Assembly (NCBI GenBank): GCA_947459535.1
Contig: CANHDY010000001.1
Span: 4,653 to 68,652 of the forward strand
Length of the DNA stretch: 64,000 nucleotides
Direction of reading: 5' to 3'
Source of the DNA: Rickettsiales bacterium
Lineage (GTDB): Bacteria > Pseudomonadota > Alphaproteobacteria > Rickettsiales > SXRF01
Under the pieces are notes generated by a model, which ran no database searches, was not told the DNA's origin, and saw nothing but the letters and a program-made list of their open reading frames with translations. The translations under genes were made by a program, and so were the position numbers. Below, piece after piece: positions 14,417 to 46,502 of this stretch; the first letter of the stretch is position 1, and every line of letters starts with the position of its first letter.

Positions 14417-15148
14417 CTACTGGTTTACAATAATCTTTATTGTTCTTGCCTGCCCTAAAAGCCCATCATAGCACCATAGCCTGCCCGAAAGCGACTGGCC
14501 GATGCCAAGCAGCTCCTTGATGGCTTCCAGCGCCTGCATGCTGCCGAGCATGCCAGCAAGCGGGCCGGCAATACCTTCCTGCGCGCAAGTAACCTCGCGC
14601 TGGGGCATCTCATGCACCAGATCGCGGTAGCCGGGGTGCGGCGCGCCAAAGTAGGGTTTAAAGGTGGAAAGCTGCGCTTCAAAACCGCTAATAGCGGCAG
14701 AGATCAGCGGCTTTTTTTCTGCCTCGCAGCTATCGGCCACCACAAACCGCGTGGCAAAATTATCCGAGCCATCCAGCACCACATCAAACTCCCGCACCAA
14801 TTCGCGCGCATTCTCCGCGTGGATGCGGCGCGGAAAAAGCGTCAGTTCCACATCGGGATTCAGCTCATTCACGCGATCCGCCGCCGCCTCGATCTTCAGC
14901 CGCCCCAAATCCCCCATCTCATACATCACCTGCCGCTGCAAATTGGAAAGCTCCACACGGTCATGCTCGCAGATGCCAATATGCCCAATGCCTGCTGCCG
15001 CCAGATAGGAAATCGCCGCGCTTCCTAGCCCGCCCGCGCCAATCACCAGCGCCGATGAAGCAAGCAGCTTTTCCTGCCCGGCCTCGCCGATCTCCGGCAA
15101 AACAAGGTGGCGCGCATAGCGGCGTTTTTGATCGTCGGTGAGTGGCAT
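14417..15148 (-). CDS. moeB: ThiF/MoeB/HesA-family adenylyltransferase
   Basis: 'RYARHL.LPEIG..GQ', 'VIGAGGLGS', 'SNLQRQ'. Confidence 0.8.
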   Translation of the reverse strand: MPLTDDQKRRYARHLVLPEIGEAGQEKLLASSALVIGAGGLGSAAISYLAAAGIGHIGICEHDRVELSNLQRQVMYEMGDLGRLKIEAAADRVNELNPDVELTLFPRRIHAENARELVREFDVVLDGSDNFATRFVVADSCEAEKKPLISAAISGFEAQLSTFKPYFGAPHPGYRDLVHEMPQREVTCAQEGIAGPLAGMLGSMQALEAIKELLGIGQSLSGRLWCYDGLLGQARTIKIIVNQ

Positions 15149-15233
15149 AGGTTTCGTAGGTTGCGAAGGTTACGAAGGTTGCGTAAGCTAAACCTACGAA
15201 ACTTACGAAACATACGCAACCTCCGTAACCTCC
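15149..15233. repeat. nonamer array inverted repeat: ~4x GGTTNCGNA then ~5x TNCGNAACC
   Basis: Read directly. Fills the whole spacer between the divergent start codons at 15148 and 15236. Confidence 0.9.
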
Positions 15234-15235
15234 CA

Positions 15236-15754
15236 ATGCCCTACCGCTTCACCCTTCTCTACCTGCTGCTTATTCCGCTGGTAAACTGGGCATTTTCCTG
15301 GACACCGCTCGTCGCGCTGCCGGACGGCGGCATGTGGTCGCCTTTTTCGATTGCAGTGGGGCTGATTCTGGTGGTGCGTGATTTCGCCCAGCGCGAGATC
15401 GGGCAGTATATCTTCATCCCGCTCATCATCGGGGTGGCGATCTCGTTTCTGATGGCGCCGCCGGAAATCGCCGCCGCTAGCGGCATTGCATTTTTCGTCA
15501 GCGAGCTGGTGGACTGGGCGCTTTACACCTTCACCAAAAAACCGCTTTCCACCCGTGTGATGATCTCCAGCCTCGCCAGCGCGCCGGTCGATAGCATCAT
15601 CTACTTATCTGGTGCAAATATGGCCATTCCCGGCCTCTTCAGCTGGTGGACACTGGGCACCATGATCATAAGCAAATTATTGGGCGCGTATGTAGTGTAT
15701 CGCATACTGAGGAAAAGAGAGCGCTCCTCGTCATTCCCCGAATTTCGCCAGTAG
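15236..15754 (+). CDS. VUT-family (YhhQ/DUF165-like) membrane protein
   Basis: Polytopic profile with 'VVRDFAQREIG' and 'APVDSIIY'. Start set at ATG 15236; the ORF-track N-terminus is a translated repeat. Confidence 0.6.
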   Translation: MPYRFTLLYLLLIPLVNWAFSWTPLVALPDGGMWSPFSIAVGLILVVRDFAQREIGQYIFIPLIIGVAISFLMAPPEIAAASGIAFFVSELVDWALYTFTKKPLSTRVMISSLASAPVDSIIYLSGANMAIPGLFSWWTLGTMIISKLLGAYVVYRILRKRERSSSFPEFRQ

Positions 15755-15770
15755 GTGAAATTATAGGGGA

Positions 15771-15879
15771 ATCCATCCAGAAATGTCAGCAGACATTTCT
15801 GGGACGCAAAAGGTCTACTGACCTTTTGCTATTCTGGATCCCGGATAAATTTTTTTACTAAAAAAATTTCCGGGATGAC
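15771..15879. repeat. composite GTCAT/ATCCAG...CTGGAT/ATGAC palindromic element (MITE-like) with two internal GTC..GAC hairpins
   Basis: atccatccag + hairpins at 15777-15802 and 15806-15829 + ctggatcccggataaattttttt..aaaaaaatttccgggatgac. Confidence 0.75.
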
Positions 15880-17298: not shown

Positions 17299-17344
17299 TG
17301 TTTTCTCCTTGTCGTCCCAGATGCAGTTAGCGGGGTCTGGTCAT

Positions 17345-17644
17345 TCAATCGCCATCACCACCAAAATCAGAACTATCATCATTGGAGCCATCTTCATCTT
17401 TTTTGCTGTGGGTACTACCAAATGACCAGCGTCCTGTATCATCAACGGTTATATTCTTTGTATCTGCATTATAATTATACTCACCTGTGGAAGACATCAC
17501 TACAATCCATATGATTGCAAATAACACCATCAAAGGAACTAAATAATTGTATGCAATCCAATGCTTCAGCACAAACCAAATTATCACTTCTGCAATTATC
17601 AACCGCCCTGAAAATAGCCATTTCCAATCAAGATTTTTGAGCAT
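17345..17644 (-). CDS. hypothetical small membrane protein, AT-rich orphan
   Basis: Two hydrophobic helices and an acidic tail. Visibly more AT-rich than its neighbours. No family recognised. Confidence 0.45.
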   Translation of the reverse strand: MLKNLDWKWLFSGRLIIAEVIIWFVLKHWIAYNYLVPLMVLFAIIWIVVMSSTGEYNYNADTKNITVDDTGRWSFGSTHSKKDEDGSNDDSSDFGGDGD

Positions 17645-17659
17645 ACTCAACTCTTTTTT

Positions 17660-17689
17660 CTGGATTACTTCGCTTACGCTCGTAATGAC
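17660..17689. repeat. half element CTGGAT...AATGAC
   Basis: ctggattacttcgcttacgctcgtaatgac. Confidence 0.6.
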
Positions 17690-18924
17690 GATAGTATTTC
17701 CTTCACCAGCCTCTCAGCCACTTGGGTTTTACTCTTCTTCGGCCATGGGTGCTGGCCATCTTTGGAAATGAATATCACCCGATTGTCATCATCACCAAAC
17801 ACTTTACCGCCGGAAACATCGTTGGCAAGCACCCAATCAGCGCCCTTGGCGTGATATTTCTTAGCCGCATGGCTTGCAAGCTTCTCGGTTTCTGCCGCAA
17901 AACCAACCACCAGGCGCGGGCGCTTCGTTTTGTGCTGCGCCACGCTTTTTAAAATATCCGGGTTTTCCTCAAGCTCCAGCGCCGGTTTTTTCCCCGTCTG
18001 TTTTTTGATTTTCTGCGCGGCTGGTTTCACATGCCAGTCCCCCACTGCGGCGGCAAACACCGCCACATCCACCGGAAGCAGCCTGTGCACCGCCTCATGC
18101 ATCTCGCGCGCTGTGGTCACATGCACGACCGAAACACCCGCAGGATCAGCAAGCTGCGTCGGCCCCGAAACCAGCGTCACCTTCACACCCACCTTGGCAA
18201 GCGCCGCCGCAATCGCATGCCCCTGCTTGCCGCTGGAGCGATTGGCAATATAGCGCACCGGATCAATCGGTTCATGCGTCGGGCCAGAGGTGACGAGAGC
18301 GGTGATACTCTTTGACCCCCTCTCCCTTTCAGGGAGAGGGTTGGGGTGAGGGTTATGTCTTTTACCCCCCTCACCCTGCCCTCTCCCCGCAGGGGAGAGG
18401 GTTCTAAGCACCACTTCCACAATCTCCTGCGGCTCGGCCATACGCCCGGGGCCTTCTTCGCCGCAGGCCAGCATGCCGACACCCGGCTCGATCACTTCCG
18501 CGCCGTCAGCCTTGAGCTGCGCCACGTTGCGCTGCGTGGCGGGGTGGCGCCACATCTGCGTGTTCATCGCTGGTGCTACGAGCAGTTTTTTATTGTTAGC
18601 AAGCAGCGTGGCGGTTGCCATATCATCGGCAATCCCATGCACCATCTTGGCGATAATATCGGCAGTTGCAGGTGCCACGAGCAGCAAATCCGTTTCGCGT
18701 GAGAAACGAATATGCCACATGTCCTTCTTTTCCTTGGGCGAGAATAAATCCGTGGAAACGGGATTGCCCGAAAGCTTTTCCAGTTCTTTCACATTCACAA
18801 ATTCGCTGCCGCCGCGCGTGACAATGCAGTGCACACCAATCTTCTTTTGACGCAGCAGGCTAATAAGCGCCGGCGCCTTAATCGCCGCAATCGAACCGCT
18901 GATGATGAGGGTAATGGAGGGCAT
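17674..18924 (-). CDS. coaBC: bifunctional phosphopantothenoylcysteine decarboxylase/synthetase
   Basis: 'ISGSIAAIK', 'PAMN..M', 'VTSGPTHEPIDPVRYIANRSSGKQG'. Start set at 'MPSITLII'; upstream codons are a translated repeat. Confidence 0.9.
   Translation of the reverse strand: MPSITLIISGSIAAIKAPALISLLRQKKIGVHCIVTRGGSEFVNVKELEKLSGNPVSTDLFSPKEKKDMWHIRFSRETDLLLVAPATADIIAKMVHGIADDMATATLLANNKKLLVAPAMNTQMWRHPATQRNVAQLKADGAEVIEPGVGMLACGEEGPGRMAEPQEIVEVVLRTLSPAGRGQGEGGKRHNPHPNPLPERERGSKSITALVTSGPTHEPIDPVRYIANRSSGKQGHAIAAALAKVGVKVTLVSGPTQLADPAGVSVVHVTTAREMHEAVHRLLPVDVAVFAAAVGDWHVKPAAQKIKKQTGKKPALELEENPDILKSVAQHKTKRPRLVVGFAAETEKLASHAAKKYHAKGADWVLANDVSGGKVFGDDDNRVIFISKDGQHPWPKKSKTQVAERLVKEILSSLRA
18316..18403. 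repeat. G/C-rich tripartite palindromic element, family A (CCCTCTCCC..GGGAGAGGG / GGGGTGAGGG..CCCTCACCC / CCCTCTCCCC..GGGGAGAGGG)
   Basis: Three consecutive hairpins read directly. Lies inside coaBC. Confidence 0.85.
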
Positions 18925-18942
18925 AGCTACCACATTTAAAGT

Positions 18943-18970
18943 GTCATCCCGAGCTTGTCGAGGGATCTCA
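18943..18970. repeat. GTCATCCCGAGC-type half element
   Basis: gtcatcccgagcttgtcgagggatctca. Gives the spurious 'EIPRQARDDT' N-terminal extension of the coaBC ORF. Confidence 0.6.
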
Positions 18971-19009
18971 AGATCTTTCGACTTCCCCCGCAATAAATGC
19001 CGGGTTCGC

Positions 19010-21763
19010 TCAAGATGACAACTGTTTTAGTTTATACAGTATCTCCAGCGCTTCTTTTGGCGAGAGTGTATCGGGGTTGATGCTTTCTAACTCTGCCAAA
19101 ACCGTCTCTCCTTTTGCGGGAGGTGGCTGATTGGCGGGGGTAGAAGAATAGCTAAAGAGCGGCAAGCTCGCCGGCACCTCCTGCGAATGTTCTGCCTCAA
19201 GCTGGCGCAGAATCTCGCTGGCGCGGCTTATCACCGGCTCAGGCAGCCCCGCCAGCTTCGCCACGTGAATACCGTAGGAACGATCCGCCGTGCCGCTCGT
19301 CACCTCATGCAGAAACACCAGCTCGCCCTTCCATTCCTTCACTTTCATCGTGTAGCAGGCAAGCGCTGGCAGCGTGCCCGTCAGCTGGGTCAGCTCGTGG
19401 TAGTGGGTGGCAAAAAGTGCGCGCGCTTTGGTCACATGGTGCAGATGCTCCACCACCGCCCACGCGATGGAAAGACCATCAAACGTCGCGGTGCCACGCC
19501 CAATTTCATCAAGGATAATCAGCGAGCGCGAGGTGGCCTGATTCAAAATGGTGGCGGTTTCCACCATCTCCACCATGAAGGTGGATTGCCCGCGCGCCAA
19601 ATCATCCGCCGCGCCCACGCGTGAAAACAGCTTATCCACGATGCCAACACGCGCCGATTCCGCCGGCACAAAACCGCCCATCTGCGCCATGATGGCGATC
19701 AACGCATTCTGGCGCAGGAAGGTTGATTTACCGGCCATGTTCGGGCCGGTGAGCAACCACAAATGCTTATCGGGTGCAAGGCTGGTATCATTGCCGATGA
19801 AAGGTTGCTGGCTGGTTTTGGCCAGCGCCGCCTCCACCACCGGATGACGCCCCTTTCGAATCTCAAACTCCAGCGATCCGTTGATTTCCGGGCGAACATA
19901 ACGGCGTTTGGCGGCAAGCTCAGCCAACGCCGCCACCACATCAAGATGCGCCAGCGCACGTGCGGACGCCACCACGCGCGGCGCGGCGTCAAGCACCTCA
20001 GCGACCAGCTCCGCAAAAATCTCAAGCTCCAGTTTCAGCGCCTTATCACCCGCTTCGCTGATGCTGCGCTCCAGCTCAGAAAGCTCCACGGTGGTGTAGC
20101 GCAGATTATTCGCCAGCGTCTGGCGGTGGATAAAATCCTGCGTCACCTTACTCTGGTGCGCCTGCGTAATTTCAATGTAATAACCAAGAATGTTGTTATA
20201 GCGAATCTTCAGTGTATTGATGCCGGTGGCGTCAATGTAGCGCTGCTGCAGCGCCGCGATGCGCCGCGCGCCCTCATGCTTCAGCGAGCGCAGCTCGTCG
20301 AGCGCCGCATGGTAGCCGCTGGCGATAAAATCACCGTCGCGCGCAAACAGCCCCGCCTCCGGTTTGATCGCGGACTTAAGCCGCTGGATGAGTGTTTCAT
20401 GGCCGCCCAGCTCGCCGCGCTTCTGCGCCAGCTCCTCTGGTAGTGCTGACGAGTCCTGCAGCTCCAGTGCCATGCGAATCTGCTGCGCGGCGTCCAGCGC
20501 CTGAGCAATGGAGAGTAAATCCCTTGGCCCACCGCGCGCAAGCGACAGCCGTGCCAGTGCCCGCTCCATATCTGGCGCATTCTTGAGCTGTTCGCGCACG
20601 GCGCTGCGAAGGCTGGCTTCATCTTTAAACAGCATCACCTGCTCCTGCCGGCGAAGAATCGCCTGTGGGTCGGTCAGCGGCGCGCATAGCCAGCTGGCCA
20701 GCAGCCTTGCGCCGCTGGCGGTGACGGTCTCATCCATTACCCAAAACAGGCTACCCCGGCGCTCGGCGGATAAGGTCTGCATCAGCTCAAGGTTGCGCAG
20801 GCTCGCCGCATCAATCTGCATGTGGCTGGCTGGCAGCTGACGCGTGGGTGCATCCAGACGCGGCATCGCGGTTTTCTGCGTGAGGCGCACATAATCCAGC
20901 AGCACGCCACACGCCGCCAGCTCGCCCGGCATGAAATCCCCAAACACACTCAGCGTCGCCACGGCGTAATACTCGGTCATGATGCGCGTAGCGCGCGCCG
21001 GATCAAACAGATGGGCGGGCAGCCGCGTCAGCTGGCTCTGCCACATCGGCTGCCATGCACTTTGCTCGCCGTCTGCCAGCAGAATCTCGCGCGGGGCAAT
21101 GCGCGAAAGTTCGGCGGCGATCTGCTCCGGCGCCACCATCGCCACACGAAACTCACCGGTGGTGATGTCCAGCCAGGCAAGGCTTGCCGACGCCTGCCCG
21201 CGAGCTGGCGCCACCAACGCGCATAAATACTGCGAACTGCGGCCATCAAGCAGCGTGTCTTCAGTAATCGTTCCCGGCGTCACAATACGCACCACATCGC
21301 GCGCCACCACTGCTTTGTAACCGCGTTTTTTGGCTTCTTCCGGTGTTTCCAGCTGCTCGGCAATGGCCACGCGCAGCCCGGCGCGGATCAGCTTTTCAAG
21401 GTAAGTATCATAGGCATGCACCGGCACGCCGCACATCGGAATATCCTCGCCGGCATGCTTGCCACGCTTGGTCAGCGCAATATCCAGTACCTGCGACGCC
21501 ACCGCTGCATCCTCAAAAAACAGCTCGTAAAAATCGCCCATGCGATAAAACAGCAGACAGTCCGGATGCGCCGCCTTCAGCGCCAGATATTGCGCCATGG
21601 CGGGCGTCGTTTTTTCCTCCCCCCCTTGAGGGAGGAGGTTAGGAGGGGGGGTGACAACTGTTCTGCCTGAGCGTATGTCACCCCCCACCCCGCCCTCCCC
21701 CTCAAGGGGGGAGGGAGAAATATCTTCCAAAACAACTGCTTGTTTAGCCATACCCATTGTCAC
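19010..21763 (-). CDS. mutS: DNA mismatch repair protein MutS
   Basis: 'TPAMAQYL..K....[14 protein letters not shown]', 'GPNMAGKST', 'DEIGRGT'. The N-terminus contains a repeat element, so the start is uncertain. Confidence 0.92.
21616..21716. repeat. tripartite palindromic element, family B (C7/G7 type)
   Basis: cctcccccccttgagggaggagg / gggggggtgaca..tgtcacccccc / ccctccccctcaagggggggaggg. Lies inside the mutS 5' region. Confidence 0.85.
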
Positions 21764-22402: not shown

Positions 22403-22494
22403 GCCGGTTCGATTTTCCTTGCCTTTCGCCTGTTCTTGTGCGATGCACATTTTTCCTTTGTAAAACACCAACTTATGCTGCGGTGCAGCATAAG

Positions 22495-22584
22495 CACGTG
22501 GTTATCGTGGCTCGTGGTTATCGTGGTTGAATAAAATTTTCACGACAATCACGATAGTCACGACAATCACGGCCATCACGAGCC
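22495..22584. repeat. CGTGGTT-unit array (arm 1), AT loop, CACGA-unit array (arm 2)
   Basis: cgtggttat cgtggct cgtggttat cgtggttg / aataaaatttt / cacgacaat cacgatagt cacgacaat cacggccat cacgagcc. Confidence 0.9.
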
Positions 22585-25605: not shown

Positions 25606-25689
25606 CCCCTCTCCCCTCCGAGGAGAGGGTTAGGGTGAGGGGGACAGCGGTTTAGGCCTCTCCCTTCCAGGGAGAGGGTTAGCGGAGGG
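25606..25689. repeat. two family A elements in tandem
   Basis: cccctctcccctccgaggagagggttagggtgaggggg and cctctcccttccagggagagggttagcggaggg. Confidence 0.8.
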
Positions 25690-30718: not shown

Positions 30719-30784
30719 AATGACAGTATGGTGACACTTATAAGACAGGATAATGACAGTATGGTGACACTTATAAGACAGGAT
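30719..30784. repeat. perfect 2 x 33-bp tandem repeat
   Basis: aatgacagtatggtgacacttataagacaggat occurs twice. Lies in the AT-rich region upstream of the 463-aa orphan. Confidence 0.95.
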
Positions 30785-30817
30785 AATATAATGATATATA
30801 TATCTTTATTTTACCAA

Positions 30818-30857
30818 CTGGATCCCCGGATCGCGCTTACGCGCGTCCGAGGATGAC
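30818..30857. repeat. half element CTGGAT...GGATGAC
   Basis: ctggatccccggatcgcgcttacgcgcgtccgaggatgac. Confidence 0.7.
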
Positions 30858-30860
30858 AGA

Positions 30861-33478: not shown

Positions 33479-34924
33479 ATGAGTATGAATAGCACCACCC
33501 CGGAATCGCTTTTCTTTTCAGGAACCAGCCTCGACCAGGTTCGGGCGCAGCAGCTAGTCTCGTCCGCCCTTGACGGCATGGATGACGGCGAGCTGTTTTT
33601 GGAATACATCCAGTCGGAATCGCTGGCTTTTGATGATGGCCGCCTGAAAAATGCCAGCTTTAATACCGCGCAGGGCTTTGGGCTTCGCAGCGTACTCGGC
33701 GAGGCCACCGCCTATGCCCACGCCTCGGAAATCAGCGAAGCAGCGCTTGCCCGCGCTGCCCAGACCGTACGCGCCGTGAACCATGGCCAGAAACCCGTTC
33801 ATGCCAGCATGGCGCCCGCCTTTGGCACCAACCGCAAGCTCTACCGCGATATCAACCCGCTGAAGGAAGTGGCGTTTGAGGTGAAAGTAGCGCTGCTGCA
33901 GGAGATTGATGCTTACCTGCGCGGCAAGGATGCGCGTGTGAAGCAGGTTTCCGCCTCCATTTCGGGGCAGTGGCAGGCGGTGCATATTATGAAAGCAGAC
34001 GGCAGCGCCGCAAGCGACATCCGCCCGCTGGTGCGCGTGAATGTCAGCGTGATTGTCGAAGAACATGGCCGCCGCGAATCCGGCTCCAGCGGCGCGGGCG
34101 GCCGCGTGGCTTATGCACAATATATAGGCGAAGGCGGCTGGAAAAAGCTGGCGGATGAAGCGCTGCGGCAAGCGCTGGTGAACCTTGAGTCCATCCCCGC
34201 CCCGGCCGGCGAAATGCCGGTGGTGCTGGGGAATAGCTGGTGCGGCGTTTTGCTGCATGAAGCGATCGGCCACGGGCTGGAAGGTGATTTCAACCGCAAA
34301 GGAACCTCGGCATTTGCCGGGCTTATGGGCAAACAGGTCGCAAGTAAAGGCGTCACCATCGTCGATGATGGCACGATTGTTGATAAGCGCGGCTCGCTCT
34401 CGATTGATGATGAAGGCACCCCAACCTCACGGACCACGCTAATTGAGGATGGCATCCTTGTTGGCTATATTCAGGACAGGCTAAATGCCCGCCTGATGAA
34501 CATGCGCGCCACCGGCAATGGCCGCCGCGAAAGCTTCGCTCACCAGCCCATGCCGCGCATGACCAACACCTATATGTTAAATGGTGAAGGCACACGCGAA
34601 TCGATGATCGCCTCGGTGAAGCGCGGTATTTATGCGGCGCATTTTGGCGGCGGCCAGGTGGATATCACCTCCGGCAAATTCGTGTTTTCTGCTTCCGAAG
34701 CCTACCTGATTGAAAACGGCAAAATCACCGCGCCGCTGAAAGGCGCAACCCTGATTGGCAACGGCCCCGACTGTCTCACCAAAATTCGCGCCATCGGGAA
34801 TGACACGGCGCTGGATGATGGCGTCGGCACCTGCGGCAAAGCCGGCCAGTCTGTGCCCGTCGGCGTCGGCCAGCCCTCCCTTCTCATTGATGCAATGACG
34901 GTGGGTGGGACGGCTGTCGGATGA
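33479..34924 (+). CDS. tldD: metalloprotease TldD
   Basis: 'HEAIGHGLEGD', 'GNGRRESF', 'VGTCGKAGQ'. Confidence 0.92.
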   Translation: MSMNSTTPESLFFSGTSLDQVRAQQLVSSALDGMDDGELFLEYIQSESLAFDDGRLKNASFNTAQGFGLRSVLGEATAYAHASEISEAALARAAQTVRAVNHGQKPVHASMAPAFGTNRKLYRDINPLKEVAFEVKVALLQEIDAYLRGKDARVKQVSASISGQWQAVHIMKADGSAASDIRPLVRVNVSVIVEEHGRRESGSSGAGGRVAYAQYIGEGGWKKLADEALRQALVNLESIPAPAGEMPVVLGNSWCGVLLHEAIGHGLEGDFNRKGTSAFAGLMGKQVASKGVTIVDDGTIVDKRGSLSIDDEGTPTSRTTLIEDGILVGYIQDRLNARLMNMRATGNGRRESFAHQPMPRMTNTYMLNGEGTRESMIASVKRGIYAAHFGGGQVDITSGKFVFSASEAYLIENGKITAPLKGATLIGNGPDCLTKIRAIGNDTALDDGVGTCGKAGQSVPVGVGQPSLLIDAMTVGGTAVG

Positions 34925-35016
34925 CGGCTGACGGCTCACGAAAAAATCAGAAATTCATAGAAAACCTAGTCGATTCCGCCCATTTTCTTACTTGTCATCC
35001 GCCATCCGTCATCCGT
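34909..35016. repeat. CGGATGA/CGGCTGA heptamer arm (34909-34940) and TCATCCG arm (34993-35016), ~52-nt spacer
   Basis: Read directly. Arm 1 overlaps the last tldD codons and the stop codon. Confidence 0.8.
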
Positions 35017-35133
35017 TTATGACAGTTCCATGACAGTTCGGTTACGGAACCGTGAAGATTGCATCCACGGGCGTTTTAGCATTTGTGCTCTGTTTGGTTT
35101 TCGATAAGATGAGTACATAGAGGAACACAAATT

Positions 35134-35319
35134 ATGAGTCTCGATATGCCACACCTTCCCCTTGATCAGCTGACCTTCTCCAATGTGGATAGTGCATTGG
35201 TAGCCGGTGGCACCAACCTTGCTATCAGCCAAGCTTCAGTCGGTGGCGGCATGGATGCAACAACCACTTTTGCACAAAATATTGGCATGGCTCGCCGGGA
35301 TGATGGTTTAGGCATCTAA
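35134..35319 (+). CDS. small hypothetical protein (61 aa), monocistronic
   Basis: GAGGA lies 9-10 nt upstream of the start. Followed by a strong intrinsic terminator at 35341-35370. Confidence 0.5.
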   Translation: MSLDMPHLPLDQLTFSNVDSALVAGGTNLAISQASVGGGMDATTTFAQNIGMARRDDGLGI

Positions 35320-35340
35320 CCTATTCAGCTACATGTAACA

Positions 35341-35370
35341 AAAAAGCGGCCTTCGAGCCGCTTTTTTTGT
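35341..35370 (+). terminator. rho-independent terminator
   Basis: aaaaAGCGGCcttcgaGCCGCTttttttt: GC stem followed by a T-run. Confidence 0.75.
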
Positions 35371-35381
35371 GTTTACGTGCC

Positions 35382-35470
35382 GTCATGCCCGTGAAAACGG
35401 GCATCCAGCGCGCCGCGTCTGCGGCGAAATGGTATTAAGTAGACTGGATTCCCGCTTTCGCGGGAATGAC
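35382..35470. repeat. composite element: GTCATGCCCGTGAAAACGGGCATCCAG - spacer hairpin - CTGGATTCCCGCTTTCGCGGGAATGAC
   Basis: Read directly. The spacer holds the hairpin cgccgc-gtct-gcggcg. Confidence 0.8.
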
Positions 35471-35577
35471 GAAATAAATAACCCTCTCAGAGCACCCAGA
35501 AAACGCTTTTCATTTACATTCCATGCTTTTTCAGTATAGTATCAATCTATTGCGCACAAAACGGGCGATAGACTAGC

Positions 35578-35934
35578 ATGTCCACAAAATGGAGCTCCCA
35601 GATACTCGGTCGCGGCTCGGTCAATTTCGATGACCTGCTGAAGGACGAGTATTCCATTATTCTGCTGCAGGGCAAGAACACCTTCGGCGACATGATCTAT
35701 TGCTACGTGAAAGTGACCCTACCTAATATGCAGAAACTTCAGGCTGCGCTGAAAATGGGGGGCAATTTCAGTCCCAGTGATTTCGGCGAGGTGATCGCTG
35801 CAGCCAAAGGCCAGCCCAGCGCCGAGGTGAAAGCGGAGATCGGCCGGCTTTACCCGATGCTCGACACCCCGCAAGTCATGCATGAGGCCGTTGCCGCAGC
35901 AGCCTCTGAAAAAAAAGCGTGGGATGAATTCTAA
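35578..35934 (+). CDS. hypothetical protein (118 aa)
   Basis: Intact ORF with coding-like composition. No clear SD and no family recognised. Confidence 0.45.
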   Translation: MSTKWSSQILGRGSVNFDDLLKDEYSIILLQGKNTFGDMIYCYVKVTLPNMQKLQAALKMGGNFSPSDFGEVIAAAKGQPSAEVKAEIGRLYPMLDTPQVMHEAVAAAASEKKAWDEF

Positions 35935-35935
35935 T

Positions 35936-36022
35936 CGGATGACGGATGACGGTTGTCGGATGACGAAGCATCTGCTTTAGTGTTTTTTGTCATCTGTCAT
36001 CCGTCATCTGTCATCCGCCACC
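35936..36022. repeat. CGGATGA heptamer arm, loop, GTCATCY heptamer arm
   Basis: cggatga cggatga cggttgt cggatga ... gtcatct gtcatcc gtcatct gtcatcc gccacc, then the lgt ATG. Confidence 0.9.
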
Positions 36023-36850
36023 ATGCTCACCTTCCCCAATATCGACCCCATCGCGCTTGAGCTAGGACCGCTTGCCATTCGCTGGTATTCGCTGGCTTAT
36101 ATTGCAGGGATATTGCTGGGCTGGTGGATTATCGTGCGCGAGCTGGCCGCCCGCCCGCTGGAAAACTTAAATAAAAAAGCCATCGATGACATGATCGTCT
36201 GGGCGATTATCGGCATCATGCTAGGCGGCAGGCTGGGCTACTGCCTGTTTTATAAACCATCTTACTACCTCGAAAATCCGCTGGAAATCCTTCAGCTCTG
36301 GCAGGGCGGCATGTCGTTCCATGGCGGCTTTGCCGGCTTTGTGCTCGCTTTTTATCTTTTCTGCCGCAAATACAACGTACGCTTCCTCGCGCTGATGGAT
36401 CTGATGGCCTGCGTCGCGCCGATTGGCATCGGGCTTGGCCGCCTCGCCAACTTCATCAATGGTGAACTTTATGGCCGCGTTACCGATTCACCGCTCGGCA
36501 TGATCTTCCCACACAGTGACGGCCAGCCGCGCCACCCCAGCCAGCTTTATGAGGCTTTTTCCGAAGGGCTGATTTTATTCATGATCATGATGTGCTTGCT
36601 GAAATTGTCCACACTCCGCGACCGCGCGGGAGCCTTGTCCGGCCTGTTTTGTATCGGTTACGGAACTGCCCGCATTATTTGTGAGTTTTTCCGCGAGCCG
36701 GATGCTTATCTGGGTTTCCTCTTTGCCGGTGCCACCATGGGGCAGCTGCTGAGTCTGCCGATGATTTTCATCGGTATATATCTGATATGGAAATCATCCC
36801 CCTCACCCGCCGCTTCGCGTCCTCCCTCTCCCCGTCGGGGAGAGGGTTAG
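36023..36850 (+). CDS. lgt: prolipoprotein diacylglyceryl transferase
   Basis: 'IRWYSLAYI' and 'GGMSFHGG'. The last ~17 codons and the stop codon lie inside a palindromic element. Confidence 0.9.
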   Translation: MLTFPNIDPIALELGPLAIRWYSLAYIAGILLGWWIIVRELAARPLENLNKKAIDDMIVWAIIGIMLGGRLGYCLFYKPSYYLENPLEILQLWQGGMSFHGGFAGFVLAFYLFCRKYNVRFLALMDLMACVAPIGIGLGRLANFINGELYGRVTDSPLGMIFPHSDGQPRHPSQLYEAFSEGLILFMIMMCLLKLSTLRDRAGALSGLFCIGYGTARIICEFFREPDAYLGFLFAGATMGQLLSLPMIFIGIYLIWKSSPSPAASRPPSPRRGEG

Positions 36851-36860
36851 GGTGAGGGGG
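36798..36860. repeat. family A element (nested hairpins)
   Basis: cccccctcaccc...ccctctccccgtcggggagagggttagggtgaggggg, spanning the lgt 3' end. Confidence 0.85.
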
Positions 36861-36865
36861 TAAAT

Positions 36866-37942
36866 ATGAACGATTTACTTTCCATCATCAAGGAACGCAT
36901 CGCTGAAAACGGGCCGATTCCGGTTTCGGAATATATGAGCCTGTGCCTTGCCCATCCTGAGCATGGCTATTACATGAAACGCGACCCGCTGGGCAAGGAT
37001 GGCGATTTTATTACGTCACCGGAAATCTCTCAGGTTTTTGGGGAATTGCTGGGTCTTTGGATCGCAAACCAGTGGGAAAAGCAAGGAAAGCCAAACGCCA
37101 CCCTGCTTGAAATGGGCCCCGGGCGCGGCACACTGATGAATGACGCCCTGCGCGCCACTAAAAAAATTAAGGGATTGCATGATGCGGTCTCGGTTCGTCT
37201 GCTGGAAATCAGCCCGGCGCTGAAGCAAAAACAATGGCAGCTGCTGGCGGGCAAGCACCATGATCTCGGCTGGCTGGAATCACTCGATTCACTGCCGCTA
37301 GAGCCCCTTTTTGTGGTGGCCAATGAGTTTTTTGACGCCCTGCCAATCAGGCAGTTTGTATGGCAAAATGAGAAGTGGCATGAGCGTTATGTTGGAATGG
37401 ACGGCGATCAACTTAAGTTCGTCATCGCGAGTGAGCGAAGCGAGCGTGGCGATCCAGACTGGATTGCTTCACCTTCGGCTCGCAATGACGGTGAGATTAA
37501 AGAAATTTGTGAACCAGCAACTGAAATCATTTCAAAGATCTCAAGCCATATTAAAACCTATGGCGGCGCGGCGCTCATCATTGATTACGGCTACAATGAA
37601 GGCAACGGCGACACGCTCCAGGCCATGCGTCGCCACCAGTATTTTGAAATATTTTCAAAGCCCGGTAGCGCCGACATCACCGCCCATGTCGATTTCGCCG
37701 CCCTCAAAGAAGCGGCAGAAAAAGCAGGCGCCAAAGTATTTGGCGCGACGCCGCAAGGGCGTTTCCTGATGAAGATCGGCGCCGGCCAGCGCACCCAGAA
37801 ACTCTGCGGAAGCGCCTCGCAGGAACAAAGCAGAGAGCTGATCTCGGGTCTCGATCGCCTCGCTTCCCCGGAAAAAATGGGCGAACTATTCAAAGTGCTG
37901 GCGATATTGCCGCCAGATGCCATGCATGCGGAGGGTTTTTAA
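36866..37942 (+). CDS. MidA/NDUFAF7-family SAM-dependent methyltransferase (DUF185)
   Basis: 'DFITSPEISQVFGEL', 'EMGPGRGTLM'. Carries a 69-bp palindromic element in frame. Confidence 0.8.
   Translation: MNDLLSIIKERIAENGPIPVSEYMSLCLAHPEHGYYMKRDPLGKDGDFITSPEISQVFGELLGLWIANQWEKQGKPNATLLEMGPGRGTLMNDALRATKKIKGLHDAVSVRLLEISPALKQKQWQLLAGKHHDLGWLESLDSLPLEPLFVVANEFFDALPIRQFVWQNEKWHERYVGMDGDQLKFVIASERSERGDPDWIASPSARNDGEIKEICEPATEIISKISSHIKTYGGAALIIDYGYNEGNGDTLQAMRRHQYFEIFSKPGSADITAHVDFAALKEAAEKAGAKVFGATPQGRFLMKIGAGQRTQKLCGSASQEQSRELISGLDRLASPEKMGELFKVLAILPPDAMHAEGF
37421..37489. repeat. compact composite element GTCATCGCGAG...ATCCAGaCTGGAT...CTCGCAATGAC
   Basis: 69 bp. Lies inside the midA-like CDS. 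Confidence 0.85.
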
Positions 37943-38783: not shown

Positions 38784-38897
38784 GTCATCCCCGCGAAAGC
38801 GGAGATCCAGTTATAAACTTGACGAAAAATGTCTACTGACATTTTTCTTCTCTGGATCCCGGATAAATTTTTCTACTGAAAAATTTTCCGGGATGAC
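38784..38897. repeat. composite element with GTCTACTGAC hairpin
   Basis: gtcatccccgcgaaagcggagatccag + gaaaaatgtctactgacatttttc + ctggatcccggataaattttt..aaaattttccgggatgac. Confidence 0.85.
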
Positions 38898-40882: not shown

Positions 40883-40959
40883 CGTGGTTCGTGGTTATCG
40901 TGGCTCGTGATAAACGGCTACCACGATACTTAACCACGACGGCCACGGCAACCACGATC
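40883..40959. repeat. CGTGGTT-unit array inverted repeat
   Basis: Fills the complete spacer between the cysA stop (40960) and the pgsA start (40882). Confidence 0.9.
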
Positions 40960-42144: not shown

Positions 42145-43024
42145 GGTTTGCCTTTAGTTCCTTCGCATACCTAGCCTCAACTGCGTATTTTAGCAACAAA
42201 GTGAGCACGGCCAGTAAGGTCAGCAGCGACGCGACCGCAAACGCCGCTACGAAATTATATTCATTATACAGAATCTCCACATGCAGCGGCACAGTGTTCG
42301 TCTGCCCCTTGATATGGCCGGAAACGACTGACACTGCGCCAAACTCGCCCATCGCCCGTGCATTGCACAGCAGTACGCCGGAGAGCAGCGCCCATTTGAT
42401 ATTGGGCAGCGTCACGCTGATGAAGGTACGAAAGCCCGATGCGCCAAGCAGAATCGCCGCTTCCTCTTCTTCGCTGCCCTGCTCTTCCATCAGCGGAATC
42501 AGCTCACGCGCCACAAACGGAAAGGTGACAAAGATGGTGGCAATCACCAGGCCGGGCACCGCAAAAATAATCTGGATATCGTGTGCAGCGAGCCACTCGC
42601 CCAGCGCCGAATGCGCGCCAAACAGCAGCACATAAATCAGGCCGGAAATCACCGGCGAGACGGAAAACGGCAAATCAATGAAGGTGATGAGCAGGCGCTT
42701 GCCGGCAAATTCATATTTGGCAATCGCCCAGGAGGCGCAGAGGCCAAACACCACATTAAACGGCACCGCAATCGCCGCCACCAGCAACGTGAGCTCGATG
42801 GCCGACAGCGCATGGCGGTGGGCAAGCGCATCTGCGTAAGCCTCCCAGCCCTTTGCAAACGCTTCTGCAAAAACCACCGCCAGCGGCAACGCCACCAGCG
42901 CCAGCATGAAGCCAAGCGCGACAGCAATGAGCACCAACTTCACCCACCATGGCTCTCCTAAAATCTCCCTCTCCCTTTTAGGGAGAGGGTTGGGGTGAGG
43001 GTTATCAGTCCAAATGACGCTCAT
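42134..43024 (-). CDS. cysW: sulfate ABC transporter permease CysW
   Basis: Permease EAA-type region '[15 protein letters not shown]'. The first ~20 codons lie in a repeat element, so the start is uncertain. Confidence 0.85.
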
Positions 43025-43960: not shown

Positions 43961-45769
43961 CTATGACGCAAGCGATACATCTTCGATCATCAGCTGCGCG
44001 GTGATGTTGCCGTTATAGTGGTTTTCCTTAAGGTGGCCAATCAGCGAAATCTCCTTGCCGCGTGAAGAAAGTAGGCTGTCGCCCAGCTTGGTACCCACCG
44101 CGCGAAAGGCAATGGCGTTCAGGCGGGCGTTACTCAGGCGGTCGATCAGCAGCGTGCGGATATGCTGCTCGCCCACAATCTCCGGCTTCAAATTCACGGC
44201 ATGATCCACCATCAGCCGCACCGAAGGGTTGCCCTGCCCGAACGGCTCCAGCTGTTTCAGAGTATCGATCAGCTGGGTGGTCGCGCCGCCCACCGCCACA
44301 CGCGCATCAATTCGGTAGTGACGCTTTCGCGATATGTCGCCCACTTGGCGGCGAATATGATCACCAAGGAATTGTTCCAGCTGCGGAATATATTCTTCTT
44401 TGACCGTAAAGCCAGCCGCCATGGCATGACCACCGCCCGCAACCAAAAGGCCGCTGCCCAGCGCCGCAATCACCGCCGCGCCCAGATCCACCCCGCTCAC
44501 ACTGCGCGCCGAGGCCTTGCCCACACCATCTTTCAGAGCGATCACCGCGCACGGCACATTAAAACGTTCCTTCACCCTGCCCGCGACAATGCCGATTACC
44601 CCCGGGTGCCAGCCCTCGCCGGAAAGCAGCAGCACCGGCGCATTCTGCGGCGCGCACTCAGCAAGCGCCATGGCTTCTTCCAGCACACCCGCCTCAATGG
44701 CGCGGCGCTCTTCGTTGTAGCGCTCCAGCTCAGCGGCAAGCATCGTTGCCTCTTCTTCATTCTCGCTGGTGAGAATACGCACACCAAGATCCGACTTGCC
44801 CACGCGCCCGCCAGCATTGATGCGCGGCCCCAGAATAAAACCGCAATGATAGGCCGCAAGCTGACCATCGGCGCGCGCGGTCTGCAGCAGCGTGCGAATG
44901 CCGATATTCTGCTTAGCTGCCATCACTTTCAGCCCTTGCGCGACCAGTGCGCGGTTAGCGCCGATAAGCGGCACCACATCCGCCACCGTGCCCAGCGCGA
45001 CAATATCGAGGAGTTGTTTCAGGTCAGGTAAAGGTCGTGGTTCGTGGTTCGTGGTTCGTGGTTCGTGATTTCGCAGCACTCGATTCACCGCCACACACAG
45101 GAGGAATGCCACGCCCACCGCTGCAAGGTACGTATGCGGTGAGGTTTCATCGAGCCGGTTGGGGTTCACCAGCGCAAGGCATTTAGGTTTTTTCGCCTCA
45201 CCCTGATGATGATCCACCACCACCACATCCAGCCCCGCGTCATGCGCTGCCTCCAGCGGAGCAAAGGAAAGTGTGCCGCAATCCACCGTAATGACAAGGC
45301 TGGCGCCCTGCTCTTTCAGCAAAAGCAGGCCAGCGCTATTAGGGCCATAACCCTCCTTCATACGATCCGGAATATAAACCAATGGCTCGCTGCCCAGCGC
45401 ACGCAAATAGCGCACCAGCAGCGCAGAAGACGTCGCGCCATCCACATCATAATCGCCCCAGATGGCGATGGTTTCCCCCGCCAGCACCGCCGCCGCCACA
45501 CGCTCTGCCGCCACCTCCATATCCAGCAAATGTGCTGGATCCGGCAAAGATGATTTAAGGCTGGGATTAAGGAAATCATGAACCTGCTCAGTGGTAACAC
45601 CGCGCGCTACCAGAATTCGTGAGAGTATCTCTGGTAGATCATGCGCGTGCATCACCTGCTGCACCAGATGCTCAGGGGCTTGGCTAAATTGCCATGAAGC
45701 GCCGGTCGCGGAAACGAGGTGAGAGGATGATTGGATGATTGGATGATGAAGTGAGTTTGTGCTATGCAT
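43961..45769 (-). CDS. recJ: single-stranded-DNA-specific exonuclease RecJ
   Basis: DHH motifs 'IWGDYDVDGATS', 'VVVDHH', 'GGGHAMAAG'. Contains an in-frame heptamer tract. Confidence 0.92.
   Translation of the reverse strand: MHSTNSLHHPIIQSSSHLVSATGASWQFSQAPEHLVQQVMHAHDLPEILSRILVARGVTTEQVHDFLNPSLKSSLPDPAHLLDMEVAAERVAAAVLAGETIAIWGDYDVDGATSSALLVRYLRALGSEPLVYIPDRMKEGYGPNSAGLLLLKEQGASLVITVDCGTLSFAPLEAAHDAGLDVVVVDHHQGEAKKPKCLALVNPNRLDETSPHTYLAAVGVAFLLCVAVNRVLRNHEPRTTNHEPRPLPDLKQLLDIVALGTVADVVPLIGANRALVAQGLKVMAAKQNIGIRTLLQTARADGQLAAYHCGFILGPRINAGGRVGKSDLGVRILTSENEEEATMLAAELERYNEERRAIEAGVLEEAMALAECAPQNAPVLLLSGEGWHPGVIGIVAGRVKERFNVPCAVIALKDGVGKASARSVSGVDLGAAVIAALGSGLLVAGGGHAMAAGFTVKEEYIPQLEQFLGDHIRRQVGDISRKRHYRIDARVAVGGATTQLIDTLKQLEPFGQGNPSVRLMVDHAVNLKPEIVGEQHIRTLLIDRLSNARLNAIAFRAVGTKLGDSLLSSRGKEISLIGHLKENHYNGNITAQLMIEDVSLAS
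45036..45070. repeat. direct heptamer tract (CGTGGTT)x4 + CGTGATT inside recJ
   Basis: Read directly. Translated on the minus strand as RNHEPRTTNHEPRP. Confidence 0.95.
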
Positions 45770-45817
45770 GAAATATGATTATCACCTAAACATTCAAATA
45801 TCCATCCATCCAACTGA

Positions 45818-45844
45818 CAGGATCCCCGCTTTCGCGGGGATGAC
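45818..45844. repeat. half element CAGGATCCCCGCTTTCGCGGGGATGAC
   Basis: Read directly. Its ATGAC terminus supplies the first ATG of the O-methyltransferase ORF. Confidence 0.75.
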
Positions 45845-46502
45845 AAACGTGCCCCGCGAACATATCACCCCGAACATCGACTATATCCGCAAGCTCTACG
45901 CGCCGCAAGACAGCTTGCTAGCCAGCATTGCCGACACATTGAAAAAGCTGGATATCGCGTGGCAGGTAGGCCCCGAAGAGGGCAAGCTGCTGCAGCTGCT
46001 CATTCGCCTAAGCGGCGCGCGGCGCGTGGTGGAAATCGGCACGCTTGTTGGCTATTCCACGATCTGGATGGCGCGCGCCCTGCCAGATGGCGGCCAGATT
46101 TTCACCATCGGCAAAGACCCTGAGCATAATGCCATGGCGAAACATTTTTTTGACCAGTCCGATGTGGCTGAGCGCATCACCCTGCTCGAGGGCGACGCGC
46201 ACCTGATCCTGCCGGTGCTTTCCAAACAAGCGCCTTACGATATGGTGTTTATCGATGCCGATAAAATCAGCTATCCGGATTATCTGGATTGGGCAGAGGA
46301 AAATATCCGCCCCGGCGGGCTGATTGTGGCAGATAACACGCTGCTGTTTGATGCCGCTTCGCTGGATGCACCGCCGCCCGGCATTGCCCCCAAAACATGG
46401 CAGGCCATGCGCCGCTTTAACGAACGCTTAGCCGATAAAAATAAATTCTTCGGGCTGATTATTCCGACCGCGGAAGGAATGAGCGTGGCGGTGAAAATGT
46501 GA
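45840..46502 (+). CDS. class I O-methyltransferase (caffeoyl-CoA OMT/YrrM-like)
   Basis: 'VVEIGTLVGYSTIWMA', 'FIDADK'. The start ATG lies in the GGGATGAC repeat terminus, so the start is uncertain. Confidence 0.8.
   Translation: MTNVPREHITPNIDYIRKLYAPQDSLLASIADTLKKLDIAWQVGPEEGKLLQLLIRLSGARRVVEIGTLVGYSTIWMARALPDGGQIFTIGKDPEHNAMAKHFFDQSDVAERITLLEGDAHLILPVLSKQAPYDMVFIDADKISYPDYLDWAEENIRPGGLIVADNTLLFDAASLDAPPPGIAPKTWQAMRRFNERLADKNKFFGLIIPTAEGMSVAVKM

Follow-up and report, generated by a model that had tools for sequence, protein, structure and literature searches.

The 87-nt spacer (15149-15235) between the divergent moeB/ThiF-family and VUT (Vut_1) transporter genes of an uncultured alphaproteobacterium is filled by an inverted pair of tandem nonamer arrays, here called array A, whose repeat structure is well beyond chance. 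It lies within a 64-kb stretch of a Rickettsiales genome (hereafter the window), which carries further arrays of this kind built from other units. The best reading of the class is that of lineage-specific inverted arrays of 7-9-mers, similar to the short tandemly repeated repetitive (STRR) sequences of cyanobacteria, and not that of gene-specific switches. With roughly even confidence, array A may be regarded as a palindromic long-unit simple sequence repeat (SSR) that arose through slippage and copying from one arm to the other, is tolerated next to genes only with the G-rich arm first, has generic effects, and in this particular spacer possibly includes two promoters.

Array A extends from one start codon to the other. 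The moeB gene (14417..15148) is read from the minus strand, with its start codon at 15146..15148 ('cat' on complement), and the VUT gene (15236..15754) begins on the plus strand at 15236..15238. A single A (15149) separates the moeB start codon from the G-rich arm (15150..15185), which is comprised of four tandem nonamers of the type GGTTNCGNA: GGTTTCGTA (15150-58), GGTTGCGAA (15159-67), GGTTACGAA (15168-76), and GGTTGCGTA (15177-85). The 9-nt centre or loop, AGCTAAACC (15186..15194), is a degenerate fifth reverse unit. It is followed by the G-poor arm (15195..15230), in which four nonamers of the type TNCGNAACC are present, namely TACGAAACT (15195-203), TACGAAACA (15204-12), TACGCAACC (15213-21), and TCCGTAACC (15222-30), and then by TCCCA. 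The array thus leaves 1 nt to the moeB ATG and 5 nt to the VUT ATG, and G accounts for 0.39 of the left arm and 0.11 of the right arm. This unit-by-unit reading agrees with an earlier note on the DNA, which had described a nonamer-array inverted repeat that fills the spacer and touches both start codons; the approximately four forward and five reverse units counted there correspond to 4 + 4, plus the degenerate fifth unit at the centre.

The same structure was recovered by Tandem Repeats Finder, which reported a period of 9 with 4.2 copies (82% matches) in one arm and 3.4 copies (86%) in the other, and by a repeat search, which found arms of 37 nt with 78% complementarity and a gap of 9 nt, together with several slipped registers such as the earlier note had anticipated. 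A two-unit pattern (GGTTNCGNAGGTTNCGNA, up to 2 mismatches) matched eight times in the window versus 0.51 expected, and six of the eight matches fell in this spacer. An assembly artefact is excluded as the source of array A by the presence of the same array in four independent assemblies. With regard to the flanking genes, the moeB product matches the Pfam family ThiF (E = 1.2e-68) and the VUT product matches Vut_1. The N-terminus of the former (MPLTDDQKRRYARH) is matched in the related genomes L003 and L004, which supports the assigned start codon. The VUT N-terminus that begins at ATG 15236 is kept in L003, L004, and L167, and independent gene callers reported an identical protein, with its start at 15236, on independent contigs.

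The architecture was not recognised as a described element class in the earlier note. However, inverted or paired arrays of short repeats have been published in Xanthomonas and Geobacter, and STRR sequences in cyanobacteria, so that array A is a further case of a published kind of long-unit repeat and does not represent a new class. Within this kind, the present case is marked by 7-9-nt units, several unit families, the absence of G-tracts, and an alphaproteobacterial host. Array A contains at least three tandem copies of a 5-11-nt unit, is paired, places its G-rich arm first, and lies within approximately 50 bp of an open reading frame (ORF) start, as is typical of the Xanthomonas/STRR-like class. 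In Xanthomonas, arrays of the heptamer GGGAATC form 70-75 inverted pairs per genome, mostly 0-50 bp from ORF ends; the sense strand is C-rich upstream of start codons and G-rich after stop codons, and the G-rich array precedes the other in a 'convergent' orientation (Rehm et al. 2015, PMC4692102). The single or paired type is kept between related species while array lengths vary, the arrays have no link to surface genes, phase-variable genes, or transposons, and only a few inverted pairs were found in Nostoc (Rehm et al. 2015, PMC4692102). The arrays described here similarly consist of a tandem short unit followed closely by its reverse-complement array, G-rich first, next to ORF ends. Unlike Xanthomonas, in which one genome-wide unit capable of forming G-quadruplexes is used, several families of 7-, 8-, and 9-nt units with mixed periods and without G-tracts occur here, and the host, an uncultured alphaproteobacterium, differs as well.

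In Beggiatoaceae, cyanobacteria, and Bacteroidetes, arrays of the heptamer TAACTGA end approximately 1 nt short of start codons, in spacers that seldom have canonical ribosome-binding sites, and binding of S1, Csp, or CsrA has been proposed (MacGregor 2015, PMC4679880). The present arrays also end a few nucleotides from a start codon, show a strong orientation bias, and are rarely in frame within ORFs, whereas the TAACTGA arrays are almost always single direct repeats of one unit with no predicted structure and include 1 inverted case among 170 (PMC4679880). Tandem-heptanucleotide sites, most of them paired, have also been described in Geobacter metallireducens (Aklujkar et al. 2009, PMC2700814). 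Those sites resemble the arrays reported here in having 4-5 tandem heptanucleotides, pairs on opposite strands, multiple copies, and locations both between and within genes; on the other hand, they use other units in another phylum and were annotated, without a test, as putative sites of a global regulator (protein or RNA). The classic and oldest example is that of the STRR heptamers of heterocystous cyanobacteria, which Mazel and colleagues reportedly described in 1990. A study attributed to Vioque in 1997 reportedly found that such heptamers also form a hairpin by which helix P12 of RNase P RNA is lengthened. STRR sequences are likewise intergenic tandem repeats with few unit families per genome and no established function, although they belong to another phylum, use other units, and form few inverted pairs in Nostoc. 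To our knowledge, none of the Xanthomonas, TAACTGA, Geobacter, and STRR repeats has an established function.

Some features are also shared with repetitive extragenic palindromic (REP) sequences, bacterial interspersed mosaic elements (BIMEs), REP doublets (REPINs), and MITEs (miniature inverted-repeat transposable elements) such as the Correia elements of Neisseria. All of these are small intergenic palindromes that occupy spacers at gene ends, are gained or lost between strains, and are transcribed into stem-loops, and in the present clade REP- and MITE-like hairpins use the sites of arrays. Correia elements supply promoters and RNase III sites, MITEs are accompanied by target-site duplications, and REPs have a partner REP-associated tyrosine transposase (RAYT, a Y1 transposase). 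REPs and MITEs occur as near-identical dispersed copies with defined ends, while the arrays consist of tandem units of variable sequence without terminal repeats or duplications. Array A is unique in the window and in its extensions L163 and L164, the other arrays differing in unit, which does not fit a REP or REPIN. Its flanks, CAT-A and TCCCA-ATG, contain no direct duplication of the MITE type.

Recurrence at four other loci with different units, as claimed in the earlier note, was found in the form of the paired arrays B, C, D, and E, in addition to a decayed pair (G) and a single-armed array (F). Array B (22497..22584, plus strand) contains CGTGGTTAT/CGTGGCT units whose length varies from 7 to 9 nt inside the one array, then an AT-rich loop and TCACGANNN units; it stops 5 nt short of the maeB ATG (22590) and lies 3′ of a promoter/operator-like block that relatives keep. 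Array C (34909..35016, plus strand) has GACGGCT/CGGATGA units over the tldD stop codon, a 52-nt loop, and then GTCATCC units. Array D (35936..36017, plus strand), with CGGATGA units, a loop, and GTCATCY units, occupies the 88-nt spacer between a stop codon at 35934 and the lgt ATG at 36023. Array E (40883..40957, minus strand) is formed by CGTGGTT-type units and their complement and occupies the 77-nt spacer from the stop codon of an ABC-ATPase gene (40960-62) to the ATG of a CDP-alcohol phosphatidyltransferase (pgsA-like) gene (40882). Array F (45035..45067, minus strand; (TCGTGGT) x 4.7, sense unit ACCACGA) is in frame within recJ, where it encodes NHEPRTTNHEPR, and belongs to the unit family of arrays B and E. 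Array G (45725..45811), between recJ and an O-methyltransferase gene, retains three copies of GGATGATT and a decayed partner, ATCCATCCATCC (45800-11).

Within 64 kb, no fewer than three unit families occur: the CGTGGTT unit is present at three loci (B, E, and F), GGATGA/TCATCC at another three (C, D, and G), and the GGTTNCGNA unit was seen at the array A site alone within 78 kb of this genome. Arrays B and E have an exact 20-mer (CGTGGTTATCGTGGCTCGTG) in common, and the genes that adjoin the arrays have unrelated functions according to Pfam. Approximately 14 kb beyond the window, covered via L163 and L164, contained no additional arrays. The density of paired arrays is at least five in the 64-kb window versus one in 726 kb of metagenome loci (in the relative L086), and approximately five array sites were found in 1.2 Mb of unrelated genomes, distributed over four genomes (Gemmatimonadales, Emticicia, a gammaproteobacterium, and Prosthecobacter). 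The class is therefore strongly enriched in this lineage yet present in several phyla.

Several other features adjoin these arrays. A palindrome, CTTATGCTGCGGTGCAGCATAAG (22473-22495), and an upstream CTTGCMT-N17-GATGCA block precede maeB and are kept in L002-L007, L166, and L169, with or without an array; judging from the sequence, together they resemble a promoter with an operator for some regulator. Array C is followed by an 11-nt tandem duplication, ATGACAGTTCC x 1.9 (in window 35019-35577), and in the approximately 540 nt after this duplication only one ORF of 61 aa, without a family match, was found. Near array G, a REP-like GC hairpin, GGATCCCCGCTTTCGCGGGGATGAC (45820-45846), overlaps the likely true start of the O-methyltransferase gene (ATG 45840), and gene callers push this ORF upstream through the hairpin (MKYDYHL...IPAFAGMT).

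With a single exception, the paired arrays have a common polarity. In 11/11 arrays of this clade and in four of five from unrelated phyla, G makes up 0.33-0.46 of the 5′ arm and 0-0.23 of the 3′ arm, which brings the arrays with a 5′ G-rich arm and a G-poor arm next to the start codon to 15 of 16. Like array A, arrays B, D, and E lie within approximately 50 bp of an ORF start and have their G-poor strand in sense. Because the element is palindromic, the polarity is valid on both strands, and any downstream gene faces a G-poor arm. The G-poor units TACGAAACC, TCACGACAA, and GTCATCC lack ATG, GTG, and TTG as well as GGA and GAGG; such motifs do occur in their complements. The polarity is most simply read as the outcome of selection that filters out upstream start codons and Shine-Dalgarno (SD)-like sites, while an embedded promoter would also explain it. 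Far longer paired arrays of 7-8-mers, again G-first, were detected in Emticicia and a gammaproteobacterial metagenome-assembled genome (MAG) (L049, 11100-11480; L064, 186-255 and 15876-16032), with the units GAATGAGT/ACTCATTC and GTTTAGT, the latter in at least 17 copies; one of these arrays ends 4 nt before an ATG and one adjoins a tRNA gene.

Comparison of orthologous sites showed that the arrays are gained, remodelled, replaced, and lost between relatives, and that REP- and MITE-like hairpins take the same junctions. The nearest species representatives of the window genome are MAGs labelled Alphaproteobacteria or Rickettsiales. In terms of MoeB identity, the relatives compared include L002 (94%, with flanks of approximately 95% DNA identity), L165 (92%), L003 (88%), L167 (75%), L166 (74%), L004 (70%), L168 and L169 (70-71%), L005 (69%), and L007 (61%). 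A metagenome search based on Lgt returned mostly distant alphaproteobacteria, and L086 (Lgt 62% identical) was the sole syntenic relative, across 35.6-47 kb of the window. The window, L001, L164, and L002 carry one and the same array A sequence, which is kept with point changes in L003. In L167, 3+3 units of this nonamer family occupy the spacer, which is 66 nt long, and lie 1 nt away from either ATG, and in L165, L166, and L004 a palindrome, TGTCATCC...GGATGACA, fills the spacer in place of the array.

Turnover was also seen at the other sites compared. At site B, the window and L004 have a common TCACGA core with different periods (9 nt in the window, CGTGGTTAT/TCACGA, versus 7 nt in L004, CGTGACT/TCACGA), while L002 carries another unit, GTGCTTG/CAAAGCC, despite flanks that are approximately 95% identical to those of the window. 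The arm complementarity score at this site is 26-35 inside one genome but 8-16 between L002 and the other genomes; both L002 arms therefore changed together. REP-type hairpins are located at site B in L003 and L166, and L005, L007, and L169 have no hairpin there and a short leader with SD-like AGGA/GGTGGA. In L086, the spacer at site D is also 88 nt long but is built from AGGTTAT/ATAACCT, site E is a 4-nt ATGA stop/start overlap without a spacer (versus the 77-nt array in the window), and site G is an intact pair with its end 2 nt from the ATG and a fold of -58 kcal/mol. Array F is an in-frame expansion that gives the RecJ of the window 8 more aa than that of L086. No arrays were found in L168 (11 kb) and L169 (21 kb), which confines the arrays to a subclade. 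It had been argued from the recurrence of the arrays that they are a system rather than an accident; the recurrence does speak against an accident, but the gain, loss, and replacement at the same sites do not bear out a system.

A MITE-like palindrome of 79 nt, TGTCATCCCGAGC...GCTCAAGATGACA, also occurs in the window (18942-19020), between mutS and the next gene, and is absent from L002, where the flanks are approximately 95% identical. Its termini, GTCATCC/GGATGAC, are the unit of arrays C and D and recur in the elements that fill the moeB/VUT spacer of L004, L165, and L166.

For the origin of the arrays, we favour a process in which replication slippage would amplify a short native motif at a gene boundary into a tandem array, after which an inverted copy would be made, and kept complementary, through template switching within a strand or gene conversion from arm to arm. 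The pair would grow until it takes up the whole of the small spacer that separates a stop or start codon from the following start codon. Selection would act as a filter, tolerating the element only if the G-poor arm faces the start codon, since this arm is free of ATG/GTG/TTG and of SD-like GGA/GAGG. The elements may later be remodelled, lost, or displaced by REP-like or MITE-like hairpins. In arrays B, D, and E, both arms would be transcribed and yield a long stem-loop in the 5′-untranslated region (UTR) or between cistrons, whose effects would be generic, as with REP, BIME, and Correia elements, and involve mRNA ends or processing and a variable influence on the start site.

Array A is the sole non-coding DNA between two divergent genes, and in our reading it would also supply both promoters, the G-rich arms contributing the -35-like TTGCGN of each and the dyad a -10-like TANNNT. 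The two mRNAs would begin just past the centre, leaving an unstructured, G-poor, SD-less arm of approximately 40 nt as the leader. A looser regex scan gave a candidate VUT promoter at 15161..15189 (plus strand; TTGCGA at 15161-66, a 17-nt spacer, and TAAGCT at 15184-89), which is mirrored about the dyad by a candidate moeB promoter at 15191..15219 (minus strand; TTGCGT at 15219-14, a 17-nt spacer, and TAGGTT at 15196-91). Both straddle the dyad and score under the threshold of the consensus scanner. The arrangement TTGCGN-N17-TANNNT across the dyad is found on five of the six gene sides at site A (window, L003, and L167), which for embedded promoters is suggestive and no more. In agreement with the earlier note, neither a consensus promoter nor an SD sequence is recognisable at moeB and VUT. 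The contrast drawn there with other genes that have clear SD sequences is half true: an SD-like motif at -14 to -9 was found in approximately 12 of the 31 gene starts examined and not in the rest, and the lack of one at moeB and VUT is ordinary here because more than half of the genes lack it. A scan of the array A spacer revealed no intrinsic terminator, and both flanking genes point away from it.

A number of observations weigh against this explanation. With regard to the promoters, the consensus scan of sites A and B found none, the candidate hexamers in array A are weak, and the pairs are only suggestive because TTG is frequent in a G/T-rich arm by construction. Slippage in array A is not fast, since the array is identical in four assemblies, one of them at approximately 95% DNA identity, and its retention from the window to L167 (75% MoeB identity), ATG to ATG every time, looks more like maintenance than drift. 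Some hairpin is present at sites A and B in every array-clade relative examined, and it could be that the hairpin itself, rather than a merely permissive site, is selected there. In addition, the unit families common to separate loci (B/E/F and C/D/G) hint at dispersal or a sequence-specific factor and are not predicted when purely local seeding is assumed. The sample, moreover, covered approximately 78 kb of this genome plus a small number of relatives.

A more far-reaching proposal, which we consider unlikely, is that the paired arrays are self-renewing promoter-plus-leader cassettes that replace ancestral SD-bearing leaders, and even stop/start overlaps, in one alphaproteobacterial subclade. 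In that case, -35-like TTGNNN boxes would be lined up along the G-rich arm and the -10 element would lie in the AT-rich dyad, while the G-poor arm could be an unstructured, start-codon-free, SD-less leader for SD-independent initiation in both outward directions; such cassettes could be interchangeable with REP- or MITE-type hairpins. If this were true, the G-first polarity across phyla would be a functional signature of the repeat class.

The principal rival to slippage and arm-to-arm copying, possible but clearly not probable in our view, is an adaptive RNA stem-loop in 5′ leaders or between cistrons, the unit of which could vary provided that arm pairing is retained. Possible roles of the stem are those of an RNase III substrate, a stabiliser of 5′ or 3′ ends, or a gate on SD-independent initiation, and RNase III has a precedent beside heptamer SSRs in Haemophilus (PMC12721329). 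Strong folds (z -4 to -7.4) were obtained for arrays A, B, D, and E and for site G of L086: array A reaches -39 kcal/mol on the plus strand (z = -5.25) and -45.5 kcal/mol on the minus strand (z = -5.58), and array D reaches -51.9 kcal/mol (z = -7.41). Arm pairing survives unit replacement, and sites A and B in L003, L004, L165, and L166 exchange the array for other long hairpins and not for plain sequence. However, array C (z = -0.56) and site B of L002 (z = -1.99) fold no better than shuffled sequences, relatives at 70% identity manage without a hairpin, one array sits in coding sequence (recJ), and a hand comparison of array A between the window and L003 showed no clear compensatory changes, the outer unit losing pairs. 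Strand-specific selection on RNA has no support either, the minimum free energies and G-U counts being unbiased between strands: of seven co-directional arrays, three have the better fold in sense and three in antisense, with one tie, and there is no excess of G-U pairs in sense. The cost of opening the start site (-18 to +12, with the whole element taken as transcribed) was also computed for 31 genes. It is highest for lgt (24.0 kcal/mol) and the pgsA-like gene (22.9), in keeping with a stem-loop, but inconsistent among the array-bearing genes as a whole, with VUT (12.2) and moeB (10.3) near the median of approximately 10 and maeB (2.0) the lowest. As these costs span the lowest to the highest of the gene set, uniform occlusion of the ribosome site is rejected as a general mechanism. 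An Rfam scan of the whole window gave 0 matches at the gathering score, and a tRNA/tmRNA scan gave none.

It is improbable that the element is a row of sites bound by a sequence-specific protein, or by several, acting on DNA (iteron-like or a global regulator) or on single-stranded RNA (S1, Csp, or CsrA). Identical units at several loci would fit such sites, and so would published proposals, since curators labelled similar paired heptanucleotides of Geobacter as putative global regulator sites (PMC2700814) and S1, Csp, or CsrA binding was suggested for TAACTGA repeats (PMC4679880). This reading is hard to reconcile with at least three unit families in 64 kb, a choice of unit that varies among close relatives at orthologous sites (window versus L002 at B, window versus L086 at D), unit lengths of 7 to 9 nt in one array, and functionally unrelated neighbour genes. 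Among specific motifs, a DnaA-box reading of the CGTGGTTAT units was dropped, as only 6/9 positions match and the context does not fit; a CsrA-type reading of the GGA motifs in arrays C and D was dropped because these motifs lie in the stem rather than in loops; and a G-quadruplex reading of array A was rejected for lack of G-tracts (no GGG runs). A contingency locus, in which changes in copy number switch or tune moeB or VUT in the manner of phase variation, is very improbable. A tandem SSR at a promoter or leader position is suitable for this purpose and copy number does differ between distant relatives (4+4-5 in the window versus 3+3 in L167), but the units are imperfect (82-88% matches), array A is invariant among the window, L001, L164, and L002, moeB and VUT are housekeeping genes, and the same negative conclusion was reached for Xanthomonas (Rehm et al. 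2015, PMC4692102). Least credible of all is a coding array that gives VUT an Arg/Leu-rich N-terminal extension from an upstream GTG or TTG. The ORF caller does translate array A, as the earlier note remarked: an ORF at 15107..15754 reads through it as 'RFRRLRRLRRLRKLNLRNLRNIRNLRNLP', with the frame open from 15107 into VUT. This 'RLRRLRRL...' reading is an artefact, because the 9-nt period holds the frame open; the extension would start inside the oppositely oriented moeB gene, is missing or takes another form in L004, L165, L166, and L167, and disagrees with both the conserved N-terminus and the independent gene callers, which place the start at ATG 15236.

Long-unit tandem repeats, such as those of heptamers, are abundant in many bacterial genomes, and the clade described here is a compact natural experiment in which the same junctions carry an array, an array of another unit, another hairpin, or nothing. 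In a small set of related genomes, it can thus be tested whether the polarity results from selection against upstream starts and SD-like sites or from an embedded promoter, and whether the homogenisation of the arms, which co-evolve, is mechanistic or selected. With regard to annotation, it should be noted that such arrays yield false N-terminal extensions and false long ORFs.

Some other repeats were also observed in the window. The repeat family CCCTCTCCC...GGGAGAGGGTTAGGGTGAGGGGG is found at 18318-18401, 25607-25678, 36843-36860, and 42981-43003, and two of these copies lie directly 5′ of the start codons at 36866 and 43024, to which they give an SD-like GGAGG. A perfect tandem duplication of 33 nt (AATGACAGTATGGTGACACTTATAAGACAGGAT, 2.1 copies) occupies AT-rich intergenic DNA at 30719-30787, with a GGATCC...GGATGACA hairpin 3′ of it at approximately 30822-30858. 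The interval 17300-17700 contains a low-GC ORF of 101 aa (17345..17650), predicted to encode a small membrane protein with an acidic tail, and the matching interval of L002 is only approximately 80 nt long. Finally, near-identical hairpins, ATCCCGGATAAATTTTT and AAAAATTTCCGGGAT, are located at gene ends (15838-15876 and 38856-38894) and look like terminators that form a small repeat family.

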